A stretch of DNA of 24,000 nucleotides, taken from NCBI RefSeq assembly GCF_001467695.1, contig NZ_LNYE01000023.1:174851-198850 (forward strand), given 5' to 3'. The notes under the pieces are model-generated. The model did no database searches. It saw only the letters and a list, made by a program, of their open reading frames with translations, and was not told where the DNA came from. The position numbers and the translations under genes are program-made. How positions within the stretch are numbered: the stretch's first letter is position 1; the number at the start of each line of letters is the position of its first letter. Of this stretch, positions 1,686-21,697 are shown piece after piece. This DNA comes from Legionella gratiana. GTDB taxonomy: Bacteria; Pseudomonadota; Gammaproteobacteria; Legionellales; Legionellaceae.

Positions 1686-3266
1686 ATGTCCGATTTTTAT
1701 CAGGATTTTAATACAAGACGAACCTTTGCAATTATTTCTCACCCTGATGCAGGTAAGACCACTGTAACAGAGAAGTTACTTTTATTTGGTGGCGCAATTC
1801 AATTGGCTGGAACTGTTAAAGGGCGTAAGGCGGATCGACATGCAACCTCAGATTGGATGGAAATGGAAAAAGAACGAGGTATTTCTATTACTACGTCTGT
1901 AATGCAGTTTGTACATAACCGGCACGTCATGAATTTACTTGATACTCCTGGCCATGAGGATTTTTCTGAAGATACTTACCGGACTTTAACTGCTGTAGAT
2001 TCAGCGCTTATGGTAATTGATGTGGCCAAAGGGGTAGAGGAACGAACAGTGAAGTTGATGGAAGTATGTCGTTTGCGTGATACACCAATTATGACCTTTA
2101 TTAATAAACTGGATCGTGAAGGTCGTGATCCCATTGATTTGCTTGATGAAGTAGAGTCGGTTTTGGGGATTCAATGTGCTCCAGTCACTTGGCCTGTAGG
2201 TATGGGAAAACGTTTTAAAGGAATTTATCATCGTTATGAAGATATAGTTTATCTTTATCAACCTGGAAAAAATGCACAAAAACAAGATGCAATGCAAATT
2301 AAAGGATTAGACAATCCTCAATTGGATGAGATGTTAGGAGAGAGTGCCCAAGAATTACGTGAGGAAATTGAACTTGTGAAGGGGGCTTCACATGAATTTA
2401 ATTTGCAGGATTATTTGGCAGGAAAAATGACTCCTGTTTATTTTGGCTCAGCAATTAATAATTTTGGCATCAAAGAATTACTGGATGATTATGTGCGCTA
2501 TGCTCCAGGTCCACAACCGAGAAATACTCAAGAGCGGGTTGTATCTCCAGATGAAGAGGCTTTTTCGGGGTTTGTATTTAAAATACAAGCCAATATGGAT
2601 CCAAAGCACAGAGACCGTATTGCTTTTTTACGTATATGCTCTGGAGCTTATAAAAAAGGGATGAAATTGAGTCACTTGCGTATTGGTAAAGAAGTGCAAA
2701 TTTCCAATGCATTGACCTTTATGGCAGGTGATCGATCACACACAGAAGTTGCTTTGCCAGGAGATATTATCGGATTACACAATCATGGAACTATTCGAAT
2801 AGGTGATACCTTTACTCAAGGAGAGCAATTAAAATTTACTGGCATTCCTAATTTTGCCCCAGAACTTTTTCGTTTGGTTCGTTTAAAGGATCCTTTAAAG
2901 AGTAAGGCTTTATTAAAAGGTTTAATTGAGCTATCTGAGGAAGGAGCAACTCAGGTATTTAGACCATTAAACAGCAATCAATTAATCTTAGGTGCTGTAG
3001 GGATATTGCAATTCGATGTTGTTGCACATCGATTGAAGCATGAATATAAAGTAGATTGCATTTATGAGTCCGTAAATGTGACTTGCGCTCGTTGGGTTTA
3101 CTCAGAGGATGATAAGGCGATGAGCGAATTTCGCACTAAAGCTTATGATTATTTAGCATTAGATGGAAGTGATGCATTAATGTATCTTGCCCCAACTCGT
3201 GTTAATTTAGCTATGGCTCAAGAACGATATCCTAAAATTAAGTTTCATGCTACACGAGAACATTAA
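1686..3266 (+). CDS. prfC: peptide chain release factor 3 (translational GTPase)
   Basis: Collinear with E. coli RF3 from [16 protein letters not shown] (G1) through DTPGHEDF and NKLDR to the C-terminal FHATREH. The ATG at 1686 gives a 526-aa product aligned to the E. coli N-terminus. The GTG start at 1566 in the ORF track would add a non-homologous hydrophobic extension. Confidence 0.92.
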
Positions 3267-16487: not shown

Positions 16488-16575
16488 TGGCGGAGAGAGA
16501 GGGATTCGAACCCTCGATACGTTTCCGTATACACACTTTCCAGGCGTGCGCCTTCGACCGCTCGGCCATCTCTCC
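16488..16575 (-). tRNA. tRNA-Ser (anticodon GGA), CCA encoded
   Basis: The reverse complement is GGAGAGATGGCCGAGCGGTCGAAGGCGCACGCCTGGAAAGTGTGTATACGGAAACGTATCGAGGGTTCGAATCCCTCTCTCTCCGCCA. It has a 7-bp acceptor stem, the anticodon loop CUGGAAA, a long variable arm (class II) and the T-loop GGTTCGAATCC. Confidence 0.95.
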
Positions 16576-16764
16576 CAATCGGGCAAGCTTATACAGGTCA
16601 GATGATAAAATCAACCCTTGTTTTATCTTAAATACATAACTTTTAGATGATATTGTATATACTATTAGTAAATAGTTCTAAGGTTGTTACTATTTCTTAG
16701 TATGGGTTTCGTTTTGAGCCCCAAAATAAAAAGATTAATTGCTCTACGCACGAAGGATTCTAAT

Positions 16765-17220
16765 ATGTTAGCACGAATTTTTATTGTCGCTGTAAGTCTT
16801 ATTTCCTCTAATTCACTATGGGCTATTACCTGTTACTATACCTTAGCTAAGGATAATTGTTGGAGTAACTATACTGTGACAGTAGATGTTATGGATGCAG
16901 CAACGGCCAAAGTTTTAACCACAGCAATAATACCGCCTGGAAAGTCTTGGGTGCGTCAATCTTTTCTTTGTGAGCCTGGACAGAAATTAATGTATCGTGC
17001 TCAGTTTTCACCGGCGATATGGGAAAGCGGAAAAGGTGAAAGTTATTATGCTAAAAACTATTGGTCTTTACCCAATGAAGTTAATCCTGGTGATTCAGCG
17101 TGGAATGTTTCTGTGTGTTATCCTTCCGATTTTTCACAAATCCCACTTCCTCCTGACGCTACTGGAACATGTAAGTGTGATTTTGACAGTATTCCAGCAA
17201 TACCACCCAAAAAGATATAA
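16765..17220 (+). CDS. hypothetical secreted Cys-containing protein (151 aa)
   Basis: The ATG at 16765 is preceded by a GAAGGA SD and opens with signal peptide MLARIFIVAVSLISSNSLWA. The TTG start at 16684 in the ORF track is less likely. The mature part has 6 Cys and a Pro-rich tail. It lies 66 nt upstream of the nagZ-like gene on the same strand. Confidence 0.6.
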   Translation: MLARIFIVAVSLISSNSLWAITCYYTLAKDNCWSNYTVTVDVMDAATAKVLTTAIIPPGKSWVRQSFLCEPGQKLMYRAQFSPAIWESGKGESYYAKNYWSLPNEVNPGDSAWNVSVCYPSDFSQIPLPPDATGTCKCDFDSIPAIPPKKI

Positions 17221-17286: not shown

Positions 17287-18360
17287 ATGATTACTTTAAG
17301 AAATAAAATTGGTCAAATGTTAATTATGGGATTTGATGGATGCACTATTCATGATAAAAGTCCCGTGGCTGAATGGCTTTCTTCTGATGGATTAGGTGGT
17401 GTTTTATTATTTGATCAAGATGTATCTACAGCATCGTATGGAAGGAATTTAAAAGATCAGGCACAAATAAAACAGCTGACTCGTCAACTTAATGATTATT
17501 CTTCTGAAATAAATTATAAAAATAATGGATTACCTCTATTAGTTGCCATAGATTATGAAGGAGGAGCCATCGACTGCTTGTCCAGAGTTGAGGGATGTAT
17601 GCCAACCATCAGTGCTTATGATATGGCACGTTTGTCTCCTGAAGCATTGCAGGCGGAATTGACCCAAATGGCGTTTACGTTAAAGTCTTTAGGGTTTAAT
17701 CTTAATTTTGCTCCGGTTGTGGATTTAAACTTACAAGAAGAACAGGGTATTGTTGGTGCCTTACATCGTAGTTTTTCAACTATTCCTGAACAAGTAGTTG
17801 ATTTTGCTAAAAAATTTGTGGGTGTTTTTTCTCGCTACGGTATTGCATGCTGCTACAAACATTTTCCAGGACATGGAAGTGCGCTTGGTGATACGCATAA
17901 GGGATTTGTCGATGTGACGAATACATTTCGAAGAGAAGAGTTAGAACCGTATTTTTCATTGGTACGCGATGTGTATCATCCTACAATGATTATGACAGCG
18001 CATGTAATAAACAAAAAGCTGGACAGTCAGGGGATGCCGGCTACTTTATCCTACGAGATTTTAACGGGTTTATTGCGTAATTCTATGAGTTATGATGGAG
18101 TAATTATCGCTGATGATTTACAAATGCAAGCCATCACTGATCATTACTCGCTTGAGGACGCTTTATGTCTGACAATCAATGCAGGGGCTGATATGATCAT
18201 TTTTGCAAATCAATTAGCCAAGATAACAGCGCCTGAAGTAATTGAAGTAATCGAGCGCTTAATCTTTGAACAAAAAATAGAATCCCAACGTATTGAAGAT
18301 GCCTACCGACGGATTATCCGTTTGAAACAGCAAATTAATTGTATAGAATTAGTTGGTTAA
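17287..18360 (+). CDS. nagZ: glycoside hydrolase family 3 beta-N-acetylhexosaminidase (NagZ-like)
   Basis: GH3 N-terminal domain motifs are present: IDYEGG, NFAPVVDL, KHFPGHG, DDLQM. The size is close to single-domain NagZ. The ATG at 17287 follows a GAGGGGA SD, and the TTG at 17272 is unlikely. Confidence 0.8.
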   Translation: MITLRNKIGQMLIMGFDGCTIHDKSPVAEWLSSDGLGGVLLFDQDVSTASYGRNLKDQAQIKQLTRQLNDYSSEINYKNNGLPLLVAIDYEGGAIDCLSRVEGCMPTISAYDMARLSPEALQAELTQMAFTLKSLGFNLNFAPVVDLNLQEEQGIVGALHRSFSTIPEQVVDFAKKFVGVFSRYGIACCYKHFPGHGSALGDTHKGFVDVTNTFRREELEPYFSLVRDVYHPTMIMTAHVINKKLDSQGMPATLSYEILTGLLRNSMSYDGVIIADDLQMQAITDHYSLEDALCLTINAGADMIIFANQLAKITAPEVIEVIERLIFEQKIESQRIEDAYRRIIRLKQQINCIELVG

Positions 18361-18382
18361 TTGTATAAGGCACATAAAGCTC

Positions 18383-18419
18383 TTGACGAATAATTGGCGC
18401 GTGTTAGAATATAATTCGT
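18383..18419 (+). promoter_or_regulatory. sigma70-type promoter with an overlapping dyad (candidate operator) for the leader ORF and DAACS transporter
   Basis: The -35 is TTGACG (18383-18388), followed by a 16-nt spacer ending in TGT, then the -10 TAGAAT (18405-18410). An inverted repeat, ACGAATAAT (18386-18394) with ATAATTCGT (18411-18419), matches 8/9 and brackets the core promoter. Confidence 0.55.
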
Positions 18420-18453
18420 ATTGCTCATATTTTAAACATTTATAAGGGTTTCC

Positions 18454-18528
18454 ATGTTAATTCCGTCTTACCATATGGCTCATCATTCGACCCTCTCTCA
18501 TTTTAAGCTTATTTGTTGTTGTTGCTGA
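18454..18528 (+). CDS. candidate leader peptide, 24 aa, ending in four consecutive Cys codons
   Basis: An AAGGG SD (18444-18448) lies 5 nt before the ATG. My translation is MLIPSYHMAHHSTLSHFKLICCCC*. The final codons are TGT TGT TGT TGC TGA (18514-18528). It lies between the promoter and the transporter start. Confidence 0.45.
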   Translation: MLIPSYHMAHHSTLSHFKLICCCC

Positions 18529-18584
18529 TCTCATTTTCTTTTTTCCCCTTCTTTATCGTTCGGTTTTTTTTGAGGATTTTAAAT

Positions 18585-19862
18585 ATGTGTGCAGCACATC
18601 AGCAACAGAAAAAATTCATTTTTAGTACCCCATTAATTTATGCTTTGATGATCGGTTTAGGTATTGCCAGTGGGCTGTCGGATATAAGTGTTTTAAAAGA
18701 AACTGGATTATTGGTTTCCGATTTGTTTATTAAGCTCTTTAAATGCATCAGTTTACCGATCATTTCTTTATCGATAATTGTTACTTTGGCAAATTATAAG
18801 ACCGATGGATTTATGAAAAAAATTTGGAAGCGAACAATTACGTACACTTTTTCGACAACTGTAGTAGCTGCGGTAATTAGTTGCTTACTCTATATCGTTA
18901 TTCATCCTAGCTCTGTTCAGGTCAATTTGGACTCTCATGAGATTAAATCAGCAAGCAGCCTAGGATATATTGGGTATTTGGCAAATATCATACCAACTAA
19001 CTTATTAGCTCCCTTTTTAGAGCAACAAGTCATGGGGGTATTATTCTTAAGTATCATTATTGGCATTGCGGTACGCCAAATTCCCGATGAAGATTCACGT
19101 GATATAATAACACGCTTTTTTAGAGGCGCACACGGTATGTTTTTGGTGATGACGCGTTGGATTATTGCCGTTATTCCCTTGGGACTTTTTGGTTTTATTA
19201 CTTCAACAGTTGTTCAATTACGTTCTGGCATGGATATTAAAGGTATAGGTGAATACTTATTAATTGTTGTTTTAGCAAATTTAATCCAAGGTTTTATTAT
19301 ATTGCCATTATGGTTGAAGAAGAACAAAATTCAGCCTTTTACAGCGATGCGTTCTATGCTTCCCGCATTATCAGTAGCTTTTTTCTCTAAGTCTTCAGTG
19401 GGCACATTACCTGTAACTATGAGTACTATAGAAAAGAATCTACAGGTTAAGCCATCAATCAGTCGTTTTGTGCTACCGCTATGCACCAGTATCAATATGA
19501 ATGGTTGCGCTGCTTTTATTTTTGCTACAGTGATTTATTTAATGCAAAATCACGGCATACCAATTTCTTATGGTACGATGGGATTATGGATTATCGTTGC
19601 TACAGTTGCTGCGATTGGTAATGCCGGTGTTCCTATGGGATGCTTTTTCCTTAGTGTGAGCTTATTATCGAGTATGAATGTTCCAATTGTACTTATGGGT
19701 GTTATTTTGCCTTTCTACGGTCTAATTGATATGTTGGAAACCTCCTTAAATGTTTGGTCTGATGCCTGCGTGACTAAAATTGTAAATGATAAAGCAATTG
19801 CAGAAGAACAGGCTGAATTAAAACCCCGAAAAATAGCTGCATATGAACCTGAGCTAGGTTAA
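18585..19862 (+). CDS. dicarboxylate/amino acid:cation symporter (DAACS) family transporter, substrate unknown
   Basis: 425 aa from the ATG at 18585, which has a GAGGA SD 8 nt upstream. DAACS signatures: FSKSSVGTLPVT, SINMNGCA, IGNAGVPMG and DMLETSLNVWSD in the usual order. The TTG 18513 extension in the ORF track reads through a T-rich spacer and is unlikely to be real. Confidence 0.85.
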   Translation: MCAAHQQQKKFIFSTPLIYALMIGLGIASGLSDISVLKETGLLVSDLFIKLFKCISLPIISLSIIVTLANYKTDGFMKKIWKRTITYTFSTTVVAAVISCLLYIVIHPSSVQVNLDSHEIKSASSLGYIGYLANIIPTNLLAPFLEQQVMGVLFLSIIIGIAVRQIPDEDSRDIITRFFRGAHGMFLVMTRWIIAVIPLGLFGFITSTVVQLRSGMDIKGIGEYLLIVVLANLIQGFIILPLWLKKNKIQPFTAMRSMLPALSVAFFSKSSVGTLPVTMSTIEKNLQVKPSISRFVLPLCTSINMNGCAAFIFATVIYLMQNHGIPISYGTMGLWIIVATVAAIGNAGVPMGCFFLSVSLLSSMNVPIVLMGVILPFYGLIDMLETSLNVWSDACVTKIVNDKAIAEEQAELKPRKIAAYEPELG

Positions 19863-20120: not shown

Positions 20121-20594
20121 ATGAAAAAGTTATACGCAATAGTAAGCCCTGCATATACTTCGGTTGGCGATAGTCTTAAAGATTTATCCTCGTTTGTCGT
20201 TAATCCTTTTCATCAGTTTATGTATGAACAAGTTTGTGGTTATTCATTAGGCCATGAGGTTGCATTTTTTGATAGCATAGAAGATGCTCAAAAGAGCATG
20301 GATGTAAGTATTCGAGGTGCAAAAGTGGATTCTAAAGCAGCAGCCCAAAAGGCCATTATTGAATTAGATGCTGATGATGAAGGAAAAATAACAGGAGCTT
20401 GCAAGCTTTACACAGCTGAAGTCCAAAAGCTTTATGAACAAGCAGAACAAGAGCGTTTTTTCAAAGCAGTTCGCATGCCTCTCTGGAAAGAGCAAATAAT
20501 AAATCCAGAGATAGATTTTACTGAAGGAGCACTTGAAGAGTTGAACAGGCAGTACCAAGGGAGTAAAAAAACAGCAACAGCGCAAGTATCGTAA
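20121..20594 (+). CDS. hypothetical protein (157 aa)
   Basis: An AAGGA SD lies 6 nt upstream of the ATG. The protein is soluble, charged and predicted helical, with no motif I recognise. The two antisense ORFs overlapping it are probably spurious. Confidence 0.6.
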   Translation: MKKLYAIVSPAYTSVGDSLKDLSSFVVNPFHQFMYEQVCGYSLGHEVAFFDSIEDAQKSMDVSIRGAKVDSKAAAQKAIIELDADDEGKITGACKLYTAEVQKLYEQAEQERFFKAVRMPLWKEQIINPEIDFTEGALEELNRQYQGSKKTATAQVS

Positions 20595-20836: not shown

Positions 20837-21697
20837 TCATCCTATCATTTCATTCAGATGGGGGATGAGTTCTTTACAGTGTCTCATCGTTCTTTGATCC
20901 TCTGGTGGTATTGTCCAATAATCTCCATATTGTTGAATGAGAAATGTTTCGGCATTATTGGGAATATTGAACTCTTTAGTTTCAAATATAACACGTTGAA
21001 GGGGATATATTTCATCATGTTTTATTAAATTATTACCGACACAATTATAACCACGCCCTACATAAGGGCTTTTACTTGTGTTGGCTTGATAGATAATTTT
21101 TTCTAGGAAAAATTCGAGCAGAGATTTAGGCAAAAGAGAGGCAATAGTCTTGTAAAGAGTTGGATAATGTCCTGTTTTCACTTTGCTGTATTTAGTGCTT
21201 AATAAACGGGAGAGTTTTTTAGCATAAAATTTATAGCGCTTTCGTTGCTTAGGATCCACGGGCATGTTGTCATAGACAAAAACATCAATAAAGATACCTT
21301 GCACATAAGGTTCATTACCTTTTTCATGCTTTTCAATAAAACGACTGCATCGATCTCTAATTTTTAAAGGTGTGGCCATGTTAAAATAGCCAGGATCACT
21401 GTGTATTGTTTGTAGCCACATGAAATCAGGAATTTCTTCGGGAGCGACACGTAAGAATTGTTCATAACTTGCACGAGGCATAGCAATATCTACATCATCA
21501 TCCCATGGGATAAAACCTTGATGTCGCACAGCTCCTAGAAGGGTTCCTGCATCAAGCCAATAGTCTAAATTATGCTTAAGACAAATAGAATCAATGACTT
21601 CGAGCATCGCAAGCATCTTTAATTGTGCTTGTCTTAATCGACCATCGCTAAATGCAGATTCTGCAGAATATGGGTTTATTTGTTGTGCTAATGTCAT
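20837..21697 (-). CDS. LicD-family (phosphocholine/phosphoalcohol) nucleotidyltransferase-fold transferase
   Basis: 286 aa with the LicD signature YWLDAGTLLGAVRHQGFIPWDDDVDIAMPRASYEQF near the N-terminus. No signal peptide. No licA/B/C-like genes are nearby. Confidence 0.8.
   Translation of the reverse strand: MTLAQQINPYSAESAFSDGRLRQAQLKMLAMLEVIDSICLKHNLDYWLDAGTLLGAVRHQGFIPWDDDVDIAMPRASYEQFLRVAPEEIPDFMWLQTIHSDPGYFNMATPLKIRDRCSRFIEKHEKGNEPYVQGIFIDVFVYDNMPVDPKQRKRYKFYAKKLSRLLSTKYSKVKTGHYPTLYKTIASLLPKSLLEFFLEKIIYQANTSKSPYVGRGYNCVGNNLIKHDEIYPLQRVIFETKEFNIPNNAETFLIQQYGDYWTIPPEDQRTMRHCKELIPHLNEMIG

Follow-up and report, generated by a model that had tools for sequence, protein, structure and literature searches.

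A conserved polycysteine leader ORF before an SLC1-family carrier gene in Legionella is a probable sensor of Cys-tRNA availability

Introduction

Why should a short open reading frame (ORF) that ends in four consecutive cysteine codons stand directly before a transporter gene in Legionella, a cysteine auxotroph that needs added cysteine for growth? The question is raised by a 24,000-nucleotide stretch of Legionella gratiana DNA (contig NZ_LNYE01000023.1, positions 174,851 to 198,850; hereafter the window, in whose numbering all coordinates are given), in which such an upstream ORF (uORF) precedes the gene for a carrier of the SLC1/DAACS family. Runs of codons for a single amino acid suggest a leader peptide that gauges the charging of the corresponding tRNA, and the first-pass annotation of the locus had suggested as much. 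Here we ask whether the uORF is conserved, how a ribosome delayed on its Cys codons might be coupled to expression of the carrier, and what the carrier is likely to transport. We find that the leader ORF is conserved and almost certainly translated, and the pattern of its conservation makes it very probable that it serves as a sensor of Cys-tRNA availability. For the readout we favor, with a probability of roughly 0.45, a model in which the stalled ribosome melts a helix between the Cys tract and the transporter start region in this lineage, possibly with Rho-dependent polarity as an added component.

Results

Conservation of the leader ORF

Loci for comparison were taken from one genome per species, from exact-protein look-ups (covering L. 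pneumophila, L. longbeachae, L. sainthelensi, L. drancourtii and others), from a metagenome scan and from the window itself. A short ORF lies at the equivalent place before the orthologous transporter in 43 Legionellaceae loci, L. pneumophila and L. longbeachae included, and these loci span transporter identities of 60-95%; the nearest relatives of the window's transporter belong to L. santicrucis (95%), L. sainthelensi (94%) and L. longbeachae (93%). All but one of the 43 uORFs have a Shine-Dalgarno-like motif and an in-frame ATG, and 41 end in a run of at least three Cys codons. They are 21-53 codons long (median 25), and their stop codons lie 36-68 nucleotides (nt) from the transporter ATG (median 49). 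Among the 29 tracts that were counted, the number of Cys codons ranges from 2 to 7, with 71 TGT and 44 TGC codons interspersed. The stop follows the Cys run directly in almost all loci, the exceptions being uORFs that end in CCCCY, CCCSCC, CNCC, CCCCSSCCC or CCS. Beyond the closest clade the peptides are unrelated except for this Cys tail, with length and position also kept; the L. pneumophila peptide, for example, is MSIQSLYYYNSSLFHSIYQDICCCC. Within that species, two lineages retain four Cys codons through a synonymous change of TGC to TGT, and the two residues that precede the run differ between them.

The association of this pattern with one gene is equally specific. At least three TGY codons followed by a stop are found 26 times in the orthologous leaders of about 150 nt and 11 times in the remaining 1.13 Mb, both strands counted, a thousands-fold enrichment relative to all other DNA scanned. 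Each of the 11 other hits, from the window and the flanks of the fetched loci, either falls out of frame within a gene or has no start codon; none is a credible uORF, and a second poly-Cys uORF, of the kind that would make up a 'Cys ribulon', was not found in this DNA. The metagenome scan yielded five clear new leaders with 4-5 Cys codons, together with three weaker cases (L096-L098) with two consecutive Cys codons, and across the genome and metagenome loci compared the poly-Cys uORF is restricted to loci of the Legionellaceae type. The alignment that the first-pass annotation had proposed as a check on its idea thus comes out in its favor: uORF, frame and terminal Cys run are conserved across the Legionellaceae, with synonymous TGT/TGC variation.

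Three loci depart from the common layout in ways that deserve mention. In L013, a Legionella metagenome-assembled genome whose transporter is 78% identical to that of the window, the region at about 2840-3000 has no uORF and carries instead an inverted-repeat unit in two copies, GTTGGGTCGAGACCCAAC and GTTGGGTCTTGACCCAAC, which resemble a small mobile or repeat element that took the place of the leader. In two more distant relatives, L096 (about 510-545) and L098 (about 505-545), just two Cys codons close the uORF, and the second of them forms part, with the UAG stop, of a local hairpin, UGCUAGC-N4-GCUAGCA, with a different loop in each locus. Beyond this hairpin come a U/C-rich stretch and a longer spacer, of 75-77 nt, and the arrangement may represent a different expression platform.

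A terminator-based switch is ruled out

The classical output of a tRNA-sensing leader is a choice between terminator and antiterminator hairpins. No intrinsic-terminator-like site is present in 18340-18600, the T8 run (18564-18571) is not preceded by a GC-rich or stable stem in either the sequence or the minimum free energy (MFE) structure, and a search of the window against Rfam returned a tRNA alone at the gathering threshold and chance-level hits alone at E <= 5, with no leader family. Taken together, these results rule out a trpL-type terminator/antiterminator switch. The first-pass annotation had likewise found no such hairpin pair by eye, and its expectation of a Rho- or translation-based output was therefore the right one.

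A predicted helix joins the Cys tract to the transporter start

What the first-pass annotation overlooked is that the Cys tract is complementary to the first codons of the transporter. The long-range helix predicted for the window (arms in Table 1) is built around a perfect core of 10 base pairs (bp), UGUUGCUGAU (18520-18529) with AUCAGCAACA (18598-18607). Of 139 start regions that belong to other genes in these loci, not one contains a 10-bp match to the window's tract, and the RNAduplex energy of the pairing, -21.5 kcal/mol, is reached by about 0.8% of 130 control start regions. A stalled ribosome was modeled as an unpaired footprint of 30 nt with a Cys codon in the A site. With such a stall, the predicted cost of opening the transporter region from -18 to +20 falls by 9.3 kcal/mol in the window, and for most relatives of its clade the reduction is 3.7-10.5 kcal/mol; a control footprint placed 30 nt further upstream has no effect on the opening of this region in the window or its clade.

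Codon usage in the 3' arm points the same way. Nowhere else in the transporter gene is synonymous-codon conservation as high as in codons 2-5 (UGU GCA GCA CAU), which rank first among 238 windows of four consecutive invariant residues, with Ala codon identities of 1.0 and 0.74 as against 0.31 elsewhere in the gene; in pairing with the leader, the native codons of the window outperform 98% of synonymous recodings. More widely, the transporter start region is the predicted partner of the tract in 17 of 27 loci. Two relatives, L014 and L026, have in common a 9-bp helix between the last Cys codon, the stop and the following 3 nt on one side and positions -8 to +1 on the other, and this helix is kept through three compensatory changes (UGU/ACA to UGC/GCA, UAA/UUA to UAG/CUA, and AAC/GUU to AAA/UUU). 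The fixed register of this pair does not extend to other loci. L089 and L021 have no partner for the tract in their N-terminal codons; instead, a box reading GCAACA or ACAACA lies just 5' of the Shine-Dalgarno sequence.

At the same time, a number of observations weigh against this reading and must be set beside the evidence above. The loci are phylogenetically related, so that locus counts overstate their independence. When leaders and start regions were exchanged between species in permutation tests, cognate pairs had no advantage over swapped ones (p = 0.15-0.26), and RNAalifold on 18 leaders returned only 7 invariant pairs, at -0.4 kcal/mol and with no covariation. Both arms of the helix are low in complexity and constrained by coding, and the MCA(A/Q)H N-terminus is present also in orthologues that have no uORF. 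About one third of the uORF loci have no predicted pairing between tract and start (L015, L018-L020, L024, L025, L034, L041, L042, L092 and L093), and in three of them (L015, L019 and L024) recodings pair better than the native codons do. In the narrow window around the Shine-Dalgarno sequence and AUG, from -15 to +5, the modeled stall produces no consistent opening, and its effect appears only once the window reaches +20; the fold of the window's leader has a modest z-score of -1.9. We conclude that the predicted helix is well supported for the window's lineage and is not a universal feature of the element.

Other pairings in these leaders were noted along the way. An anti-Shine-Dalgarno role for the bases right after the stop was considered and rejected: several matches of 6-9 bp exist, yet cognate matches are no better than swapped ones (again p = 0.15-0.26). 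In L015, L020 and L025 it is the 5' part of the uORF, and not the Cys tract, that is predicted to pair with the transporter start region; in L015, for example, AAAAACAC pairs with GUGUUUUU. Nearly all orthologues, with or without a uORF, have a Cys codon at position 2 of the transporter, an odd feature directly after the start codon when cysteine shortage is presumed to induce the gene.

The leader has a distinctive composition

The stretch between the uORF and the transporter is as unusual in composition as it is variable in sequence. The first-pass annotation had remarked on a pyrimidine-rich, G-poor spacer, with 10 C and 3 G in 18529-18563, and this feature proves to be real and specific to uORF-bearing leaders. 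In the window, 18529-18572 is 86% pyrimidine, compared with a background of 50% (standard deviation 8%). Over 29 loci, spacers taken without the Shine-Dalgarno region average 72% pyrimidine and 55% T, with C minus G at +4.1. The 100 nt 5' of the transporter Shine-Dalgarno sequence, a stretch that takes in the uORF's 3' half, have a mean pyrimidine content of 68% and a C/G ratio of about 1.9; the equivalent 100 nt of 11 orthologues that have no uORF are 50% pyrimidine with a C/G ratio of about 0.9. The bias is common to all uORF-bearing leaders, and it is held while the spacer sequence itself diverges fast. In this respect the leader resembles, on composition, a Rho loading (rut) site.

The carrier belongs to a distinct SLC1 subfamily

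The nature of the presumed regulated gene bears on what the sensor might be for. Among NCBIfam models only GltP, SstT and DctA match the carrier, at about 84-100 bits against cut-offs of 308-638, so that no equivalog cut-off is reached, and its best matches among solved structures are an aspartate transporter and the human neutral amino-acid carriers ASCT2 and ASCT1 (E of about 1e-35 to 1e-37 overall, and about 1e-35 to 1e-36 for the two ASCT proteins). In carriers of the GltPh type an arginine binds the side-chain carboxylate of the substrate. The position equivalent to GltPh R397 is here occupied by Glu (DMLETSLNVWSD, 19740-19775), which is invariant in 162 fetched relatives, 157 of which also have NMNG in place of NMDG. 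E. coli SstT, at 24% identity, has Glu-Thr in its pocket (DSCET), as does the carrier (DMLET), and so shares with it the Glu-Thr pair at GltPh R397-T398; both, like ASCT1 and ASCT2, have the SLC1/DAACS fold. SstT differs in that the carrier scores 95 bits against the SstT cut-off of 308 and has NMNG where the family has NMDG. E. coli TcyP, at 25% identity, has Arg at this position (DMGRT). The first-pass annotation had likened the carrier to the cystine carrier TcyP, and the likeness fails at this specificity residue; with Arg against Glu there and no TcyP match in NCBIfam, we reject that identity. Judged by its sequence, the carrier belongs to an SLC1 subfamily of its own, whose pocket resembles those of SstT and the ASCT carriers and would suit neutral substrates, and its substrates are probably small neutral amino acids, cysteine included.

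This subfamily is widespread in intracellular and host-associated bacteria, Coxiellaceae, Holosporales, Rickettsiales and Endomicrobia among them, and is found in gut metagenomes as well. Relatives at 40-60% identity (L043-L080 and L107-L164), common in obligate intracellular or host-associated lineages that also include Puniceicoccales, do not have a poly-Cys uORF in any case.

Layout of the locus

The features of the leader are collected in Table 1. On re-reading, the positions that the first-pass annotation gave for promoter, uORF, Cys codons, spacer, T8, GAGGA and ATG are correct to the base.

Table 1. Leader and transporter features in the window
Feature	Position	Strand	Basis or remark
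-35 hexamer TTGACG	18383..18388	+	Consensus scan
Extended -10, TGT-TAGAAT	18402..18410	+	TGT 18402-18404, TAGAAT 18405-18410; consensus scan
Block CATATTTTAAAC in the 5' untranslated region	18425..18436	+	Columns nearly invariant in six-species alignment
uORF Shine-Dalgarno AAGGG	18444..18448	+	5 nt 5' of the uORF ATG
Leader ORF, 24 codons, encoding MLIPSYHMAHHSTLSHFKLICCCC	18454..18528	+	ORF list
5' arm of predicted long-range helix (Cys tract, stop, 6 nt)	18512..18534	+	MFE and centroid structures, RNAduplex
Four tandem Cys codons TGT TGT TGT TGC, proposed sensor	18514..18525	+	Sequence
uORF stop TGA	18526..18528	+	Within the perfect 10-bp complementarity
Pyrimidine-rich, G-poor spacer with T8 at its end	18529..18571	+	Candidate Rho loading region or unstructured linker
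Transporter Shine-Dalgarno GAGGA	18572..18576	+	Sequence; relatives have AAGGA at the equivalent place
SLC1/DAACS-family transporter, 425 residues, presumed regulated gene	18585..19862	+	Pfam SDF PF00375, E = 1.2e-86, residues 22-401
3' arm of predicted helix (transporter AUG, codons 3-9)	18585..18609	+	MFE and centroid structures

The -35 and -10 elements are separated by 16 nt, and from their position transcription is expected to start at about 18417; the promoter presumably drives the uORF and the transporter as a single mRNA. In an alignment of leaders from six species, CTTGACGAA in the -35 region is the same in five, the exception being L. wadsworthii, and GTGTTAGAATAT in the -10 region is unchanged in all six; the L. 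pneumophila counterpart of the promoter has TTGACT at -35 and TGTTACAAT at -10. The nearly invariant block CATATTTTAAAC sits between the -10 element and the uORF Shine-Dalgarno sequence, and the bases adjacent to it vary across the six species. An 8/9 dyad bracketing the promoter, ACGAATAAT/ATAATTCGT at 18386-18394 and 18411-18419, had also been pointed out in the first-pass annotation. It is indeed present in the window, but it is not conserved in the two closest species, L. longbeachae and L. santicrucis, and is particular to this genome; as an operator it was rejected.

The transporter start at 18585 is set by the N-termini of orthologues, whose matches begin at residue 1 with MCA(A/Q)H, which excludes the longer frame that starts with TTG at 18513 as the gene. 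The gene 5' of the leader, which ends at 18360, encodes a homologue of GH3 beta-N-acetylhexosaminidase; in L. pneumophila the gene behind the homologous leader is placed between a GH3 (nagZ-like) gene and dapE. ORFs of 178 residues (16684-17220, plus strand) and 157 residues (20121-20594, plus strand), neither with a Pfam match, flank this pair of genes, and a LicD-family gene lies at 20837-21697 on the minus strand. The sole RNA gene found in the window is a tRNA-Ser with anticodon GGA (16488-16575, minus strand).

Discussion

A model for sensing and readout

Overall, we believe that a ribosome pausing near the uORF stop for want of Cys-tRNA is the most attractive explanation for this conserved leader, and its possible consequences can be followed step by step. 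Consider a cell with ample cysteine. Ribosomes would translate the four Cys codons, terminate at the UGA and depart, and the freed 5' arm, comprising the Cys tract, the stop and the bases that follow, would pair with the AUG and codons 3-9 of the transporter. The helix would impede initiation on the transporter, and the untranslated mRNA might also be shortened by Rho. When Cys-tRNA is scarce, a ribosome would pause on the Cys codons and mask the 5' arm, with its edge about 10 nt beyond the stop; with a spacer of 36-68 nt, the transporter's ribosome-binding site would then be left free and the transporter would be made. Stalling on the tract, and with it an increase of transporter synthesis under cysteine shortage as the direction of regulation, are what we infer from this arrangement. 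A start region shut by the helix would leave the mRNA exposed to Rho, and the two outputs are therefore not mutually exclusive.

Alternative explanations

The chief competitor keeps the same sensor and assigns the primary and ancestral output to Rho, much as in TnaC- and SpeFL-type leaders: with ample cysteine the uORF would be cleared, Rho would load on the G-poor RNA and transcription would stop early in the transporter gene; under shortage the stalled ribosome, with a second one queued behind it, would block the loading site and transcription would continue. On this view, the helix that some lineages show would be either an accessory or coincidental. This account draws strength from the composition of the leader. 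Most loci fall in the top 1-3% of background windows for pyrimidine, with G at about 11 against a background of 19, the bias is present in the groups that do and do not pair alike, and it is missing from the orthologues that have no uORF (n = 11). A spacer that diverges fast at constant composition is what a composition-defined site predicts; the leader has no intrinsic terminator; and the loci that have no predicted helix are covered. The same composition, however, would be expected if the leader need only stay unstructured or bind ribosomal protein S1, and it is U (55% T), not C (about 17% C), in which the spacer is rich. At 36-68 nt it is also far shorter than the tnaC and speFL leaders, so that Rho would have to compete directly with initiation at a good Shine-Dalgarno sequence, and a stalled ribosome would leave most of the spacer exposed. 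We judge a primary Rho output possible, if on the unlikely side.

Three further explanations do without a sensor of this kind or turn its logic around, and all are considerably less probable. If ribosomes leaving the uORF slid along the spacer and re-initiated at 18585, or unfolded the start region in passing, translation of the uORF would raise transporter synthesis and cysteine shortage would lower it. The spacer is suitably short, unstructured, G-poor and poor in start codons, Cys codon 2 of the transporter would also slow its own synthesis during shortage, and the upstream uORF sequence predicted to pair with the start region in L015, L020 and L025 fits as well. This reversed logic nevertheless gives no reason for 3-7 Cys codons exactly at the end of the uORF. 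The transporter has a strong Shine-Dalgarno sequence of its own, lowering an uptake carrier when Cys-tRNA runs out would make little physiological sense in a cysteine auxotroph, and the experimentally tested mycobacterial case discussed below runs in the opposite direction; we consider it improbable. Quite as improbable, in our view, is that the product itself matters, as a thiol-rich micropeptide with a metal- or redox-binding tail or as a partner of the carrier co-expressed with it. The C-terminal half of the peptide (H-R/H-S-T-L-x-x-F-K-L) is kept in the closest clade through changes of the synonymous type, and the Cys run is the only universally conserved feature of the peptide, as this idea would have it. 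Against it, conservation beyond that clade is confined to the Cys run, length and position, the Cys count ranges from 2 to 7, the peptide has no hydrophobic or signal segment, and the uORF is tied to a fixed distance from the start of one gene and to a special leader composition. Finally, the element might be a functionless (TTG)n microsatellite that arose by chance in AT-rich intergenic DNA, an origin that the first-pass annotation had raised as a caveat to its (TTG)4 run. The number of Cys units does shift by one among sister species (three in L063, four in the window and L082, five in L167), but the drift stays within 3-5 there, TGT and TGC are interspersed, and 43 loci retain the frame, the adjacent stop, the Shine-Dalgarno sequence with its ATG and a size close to 25 codons; conservation effectively refutes a chance repeat, to which we give next to no weight.

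Comparison with known leaders

The sensing of Cys-tRNA by a leader ORF has precedents. The first-pass annotation knew of no Cys-codon leaders as a class, but such leaders had already been described, by experiment in mycobacteria and by prediction in Rhodobacterales. The mycobacterial polycysteine leaderless small ORFs (sORFs) Ms5788A and Rv0815A, of the 'Cys ribulon', are experimentally tested attenuators (Canestrari et al. 2020, bioRxiv 10.1101/834739, Mol Microbiol 114:93). In M. smegmatis, start-codon, nonsense, frameshift and compensatory base-pair mutants of Ms5788A established that stalled ribosomes stop the tract from pairing with the downstream Shine-Dalgarno region (bioRxiv 10.1101/834739), and later work takes these attenuators as an established class. 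The Legionella leader is like them in having its Cys tract at the C-terminal end, a stop directly after it and a peptide that is otherwise poorly conserved, and the proposed logic, in which a ribosome awaiting Cys-tRNA occupies the tract, is the same. The differences are as instructive. The mycobacterial sORFs are leaderless, whereas the Legionella uORF is led by a Shine-Dalgarno sequence, with the -10 element ending 43 nt before its ATG; their targets are biosynthetic and cysteine-related, whereas the Legionella target is an uptake carrier in a cysteine auxotroph. The mycobacterial duplex is very stable and lies over the Shine-Dalgarno sequence, in contrast to the AU-rich Legionella leader and its short, weakly supported helix onto codons 3-9, and pairing in Ms5788A was shown by mutants, whereas that in Legionella is predicted and is missing from about one third of loci. 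Shared ancestry is unlikely because the phylum and the downstream genes differ and because the peptide diverges fast even within Legionella, and we treat the resemblance as convergent.

The second precedent is the uORFC-8-2 motif before cysS in Rhodobacterales, for which attenuation has been predicted and which combines two Cys codons in tandem with an intrinsic terminator (Brewer et al. 2021, PMC8632094). It shares with the present element tandem Cys codons (UGC/UGU) in a conserved uORF before a cysteine-related gene. Its two Cys codons, however, lie in mid-peptide (positions 14-15) within a stem that is followed by a terminator with a U run, whereas the Legionella uORFs have 3-7 Cys codons at their very end and no terminator.

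Other leaders share single aspects of the arrangement. The trpL, hisL, pheL, leuL, thrL and ilvL leaders likewise use a run of codons for one amino acid as a gauge of tRNA charging; they act through terminator/antiterminator hairpins, with the regulatory codons upstream of the stop, and the Legionella leader has no such hairpins. TnaC and SpeFL are conserved arrest peptides that respond, within the ribosome, to a free small molecule; their stall falls on the stop codon or close to it, and long spacers follow. They resemble the Legionella leader in the stall site at the 3' end of the leader ORF, the G-poor RNA directly downstream and the lack of an intrinsic terminator, but the signal in Legionella would be tRNA charging, its peptide is not conserved beyond close relatives, and its spacer is 36-68 nt. 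The translational attenuation of ermC and cat, in which a stalled leader ribosome melts structure that hides the start region, is the mechanism class to which our favored explanation would belong; the stalls there need an antibiotic and a specific nascent peptide, and not a limiting tRNA.

Implications for cysteine acquisition in Legionella

A full-text literature search, with most subscription journals outside its coverage, returned no paper on this leader in Legionella and none linking the transporter to cysteine uptake. If the sensor operates as proposed, polycysteine sORF attenuation is extended from mycobacteria to an AU-rich, Gram-negative setting in which the leader ORF has its own Shine-Dalgarno sequence, apparently by convergence. 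In this context, the roughly 40 diverged leaders are a natural series for comparing helix-based with Rho-based outputs. One may go further and propose that Legionella gauges cysteine through the charging of tRNA-Cys on a genus-wide poly-Cys leader, that the carrier behind the leader is its cysteine uptake system, a member of the Glu-pocket NMNG subfamily of SLC1 that is common to many intracellular bacteria, and that the ancestral output is composition-defined, of Rho type or otherwise independent of the helix, an output undescribed for tRNA-sensing leaders whose codons abut the stop. We offer this fuller account as speculation, and think it unlikely to hold in all its parts.

Regardless of the mechanism by which the sensor would be read, a conserved leader that senses Cys-tRNA singles out one gene as a candidate cysteine-responsive carrier. 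Through such a carrier it may become possible to study how, within their host cells, L. pneumophila and L. longbeachae obtain a nutrient that limits their growth.

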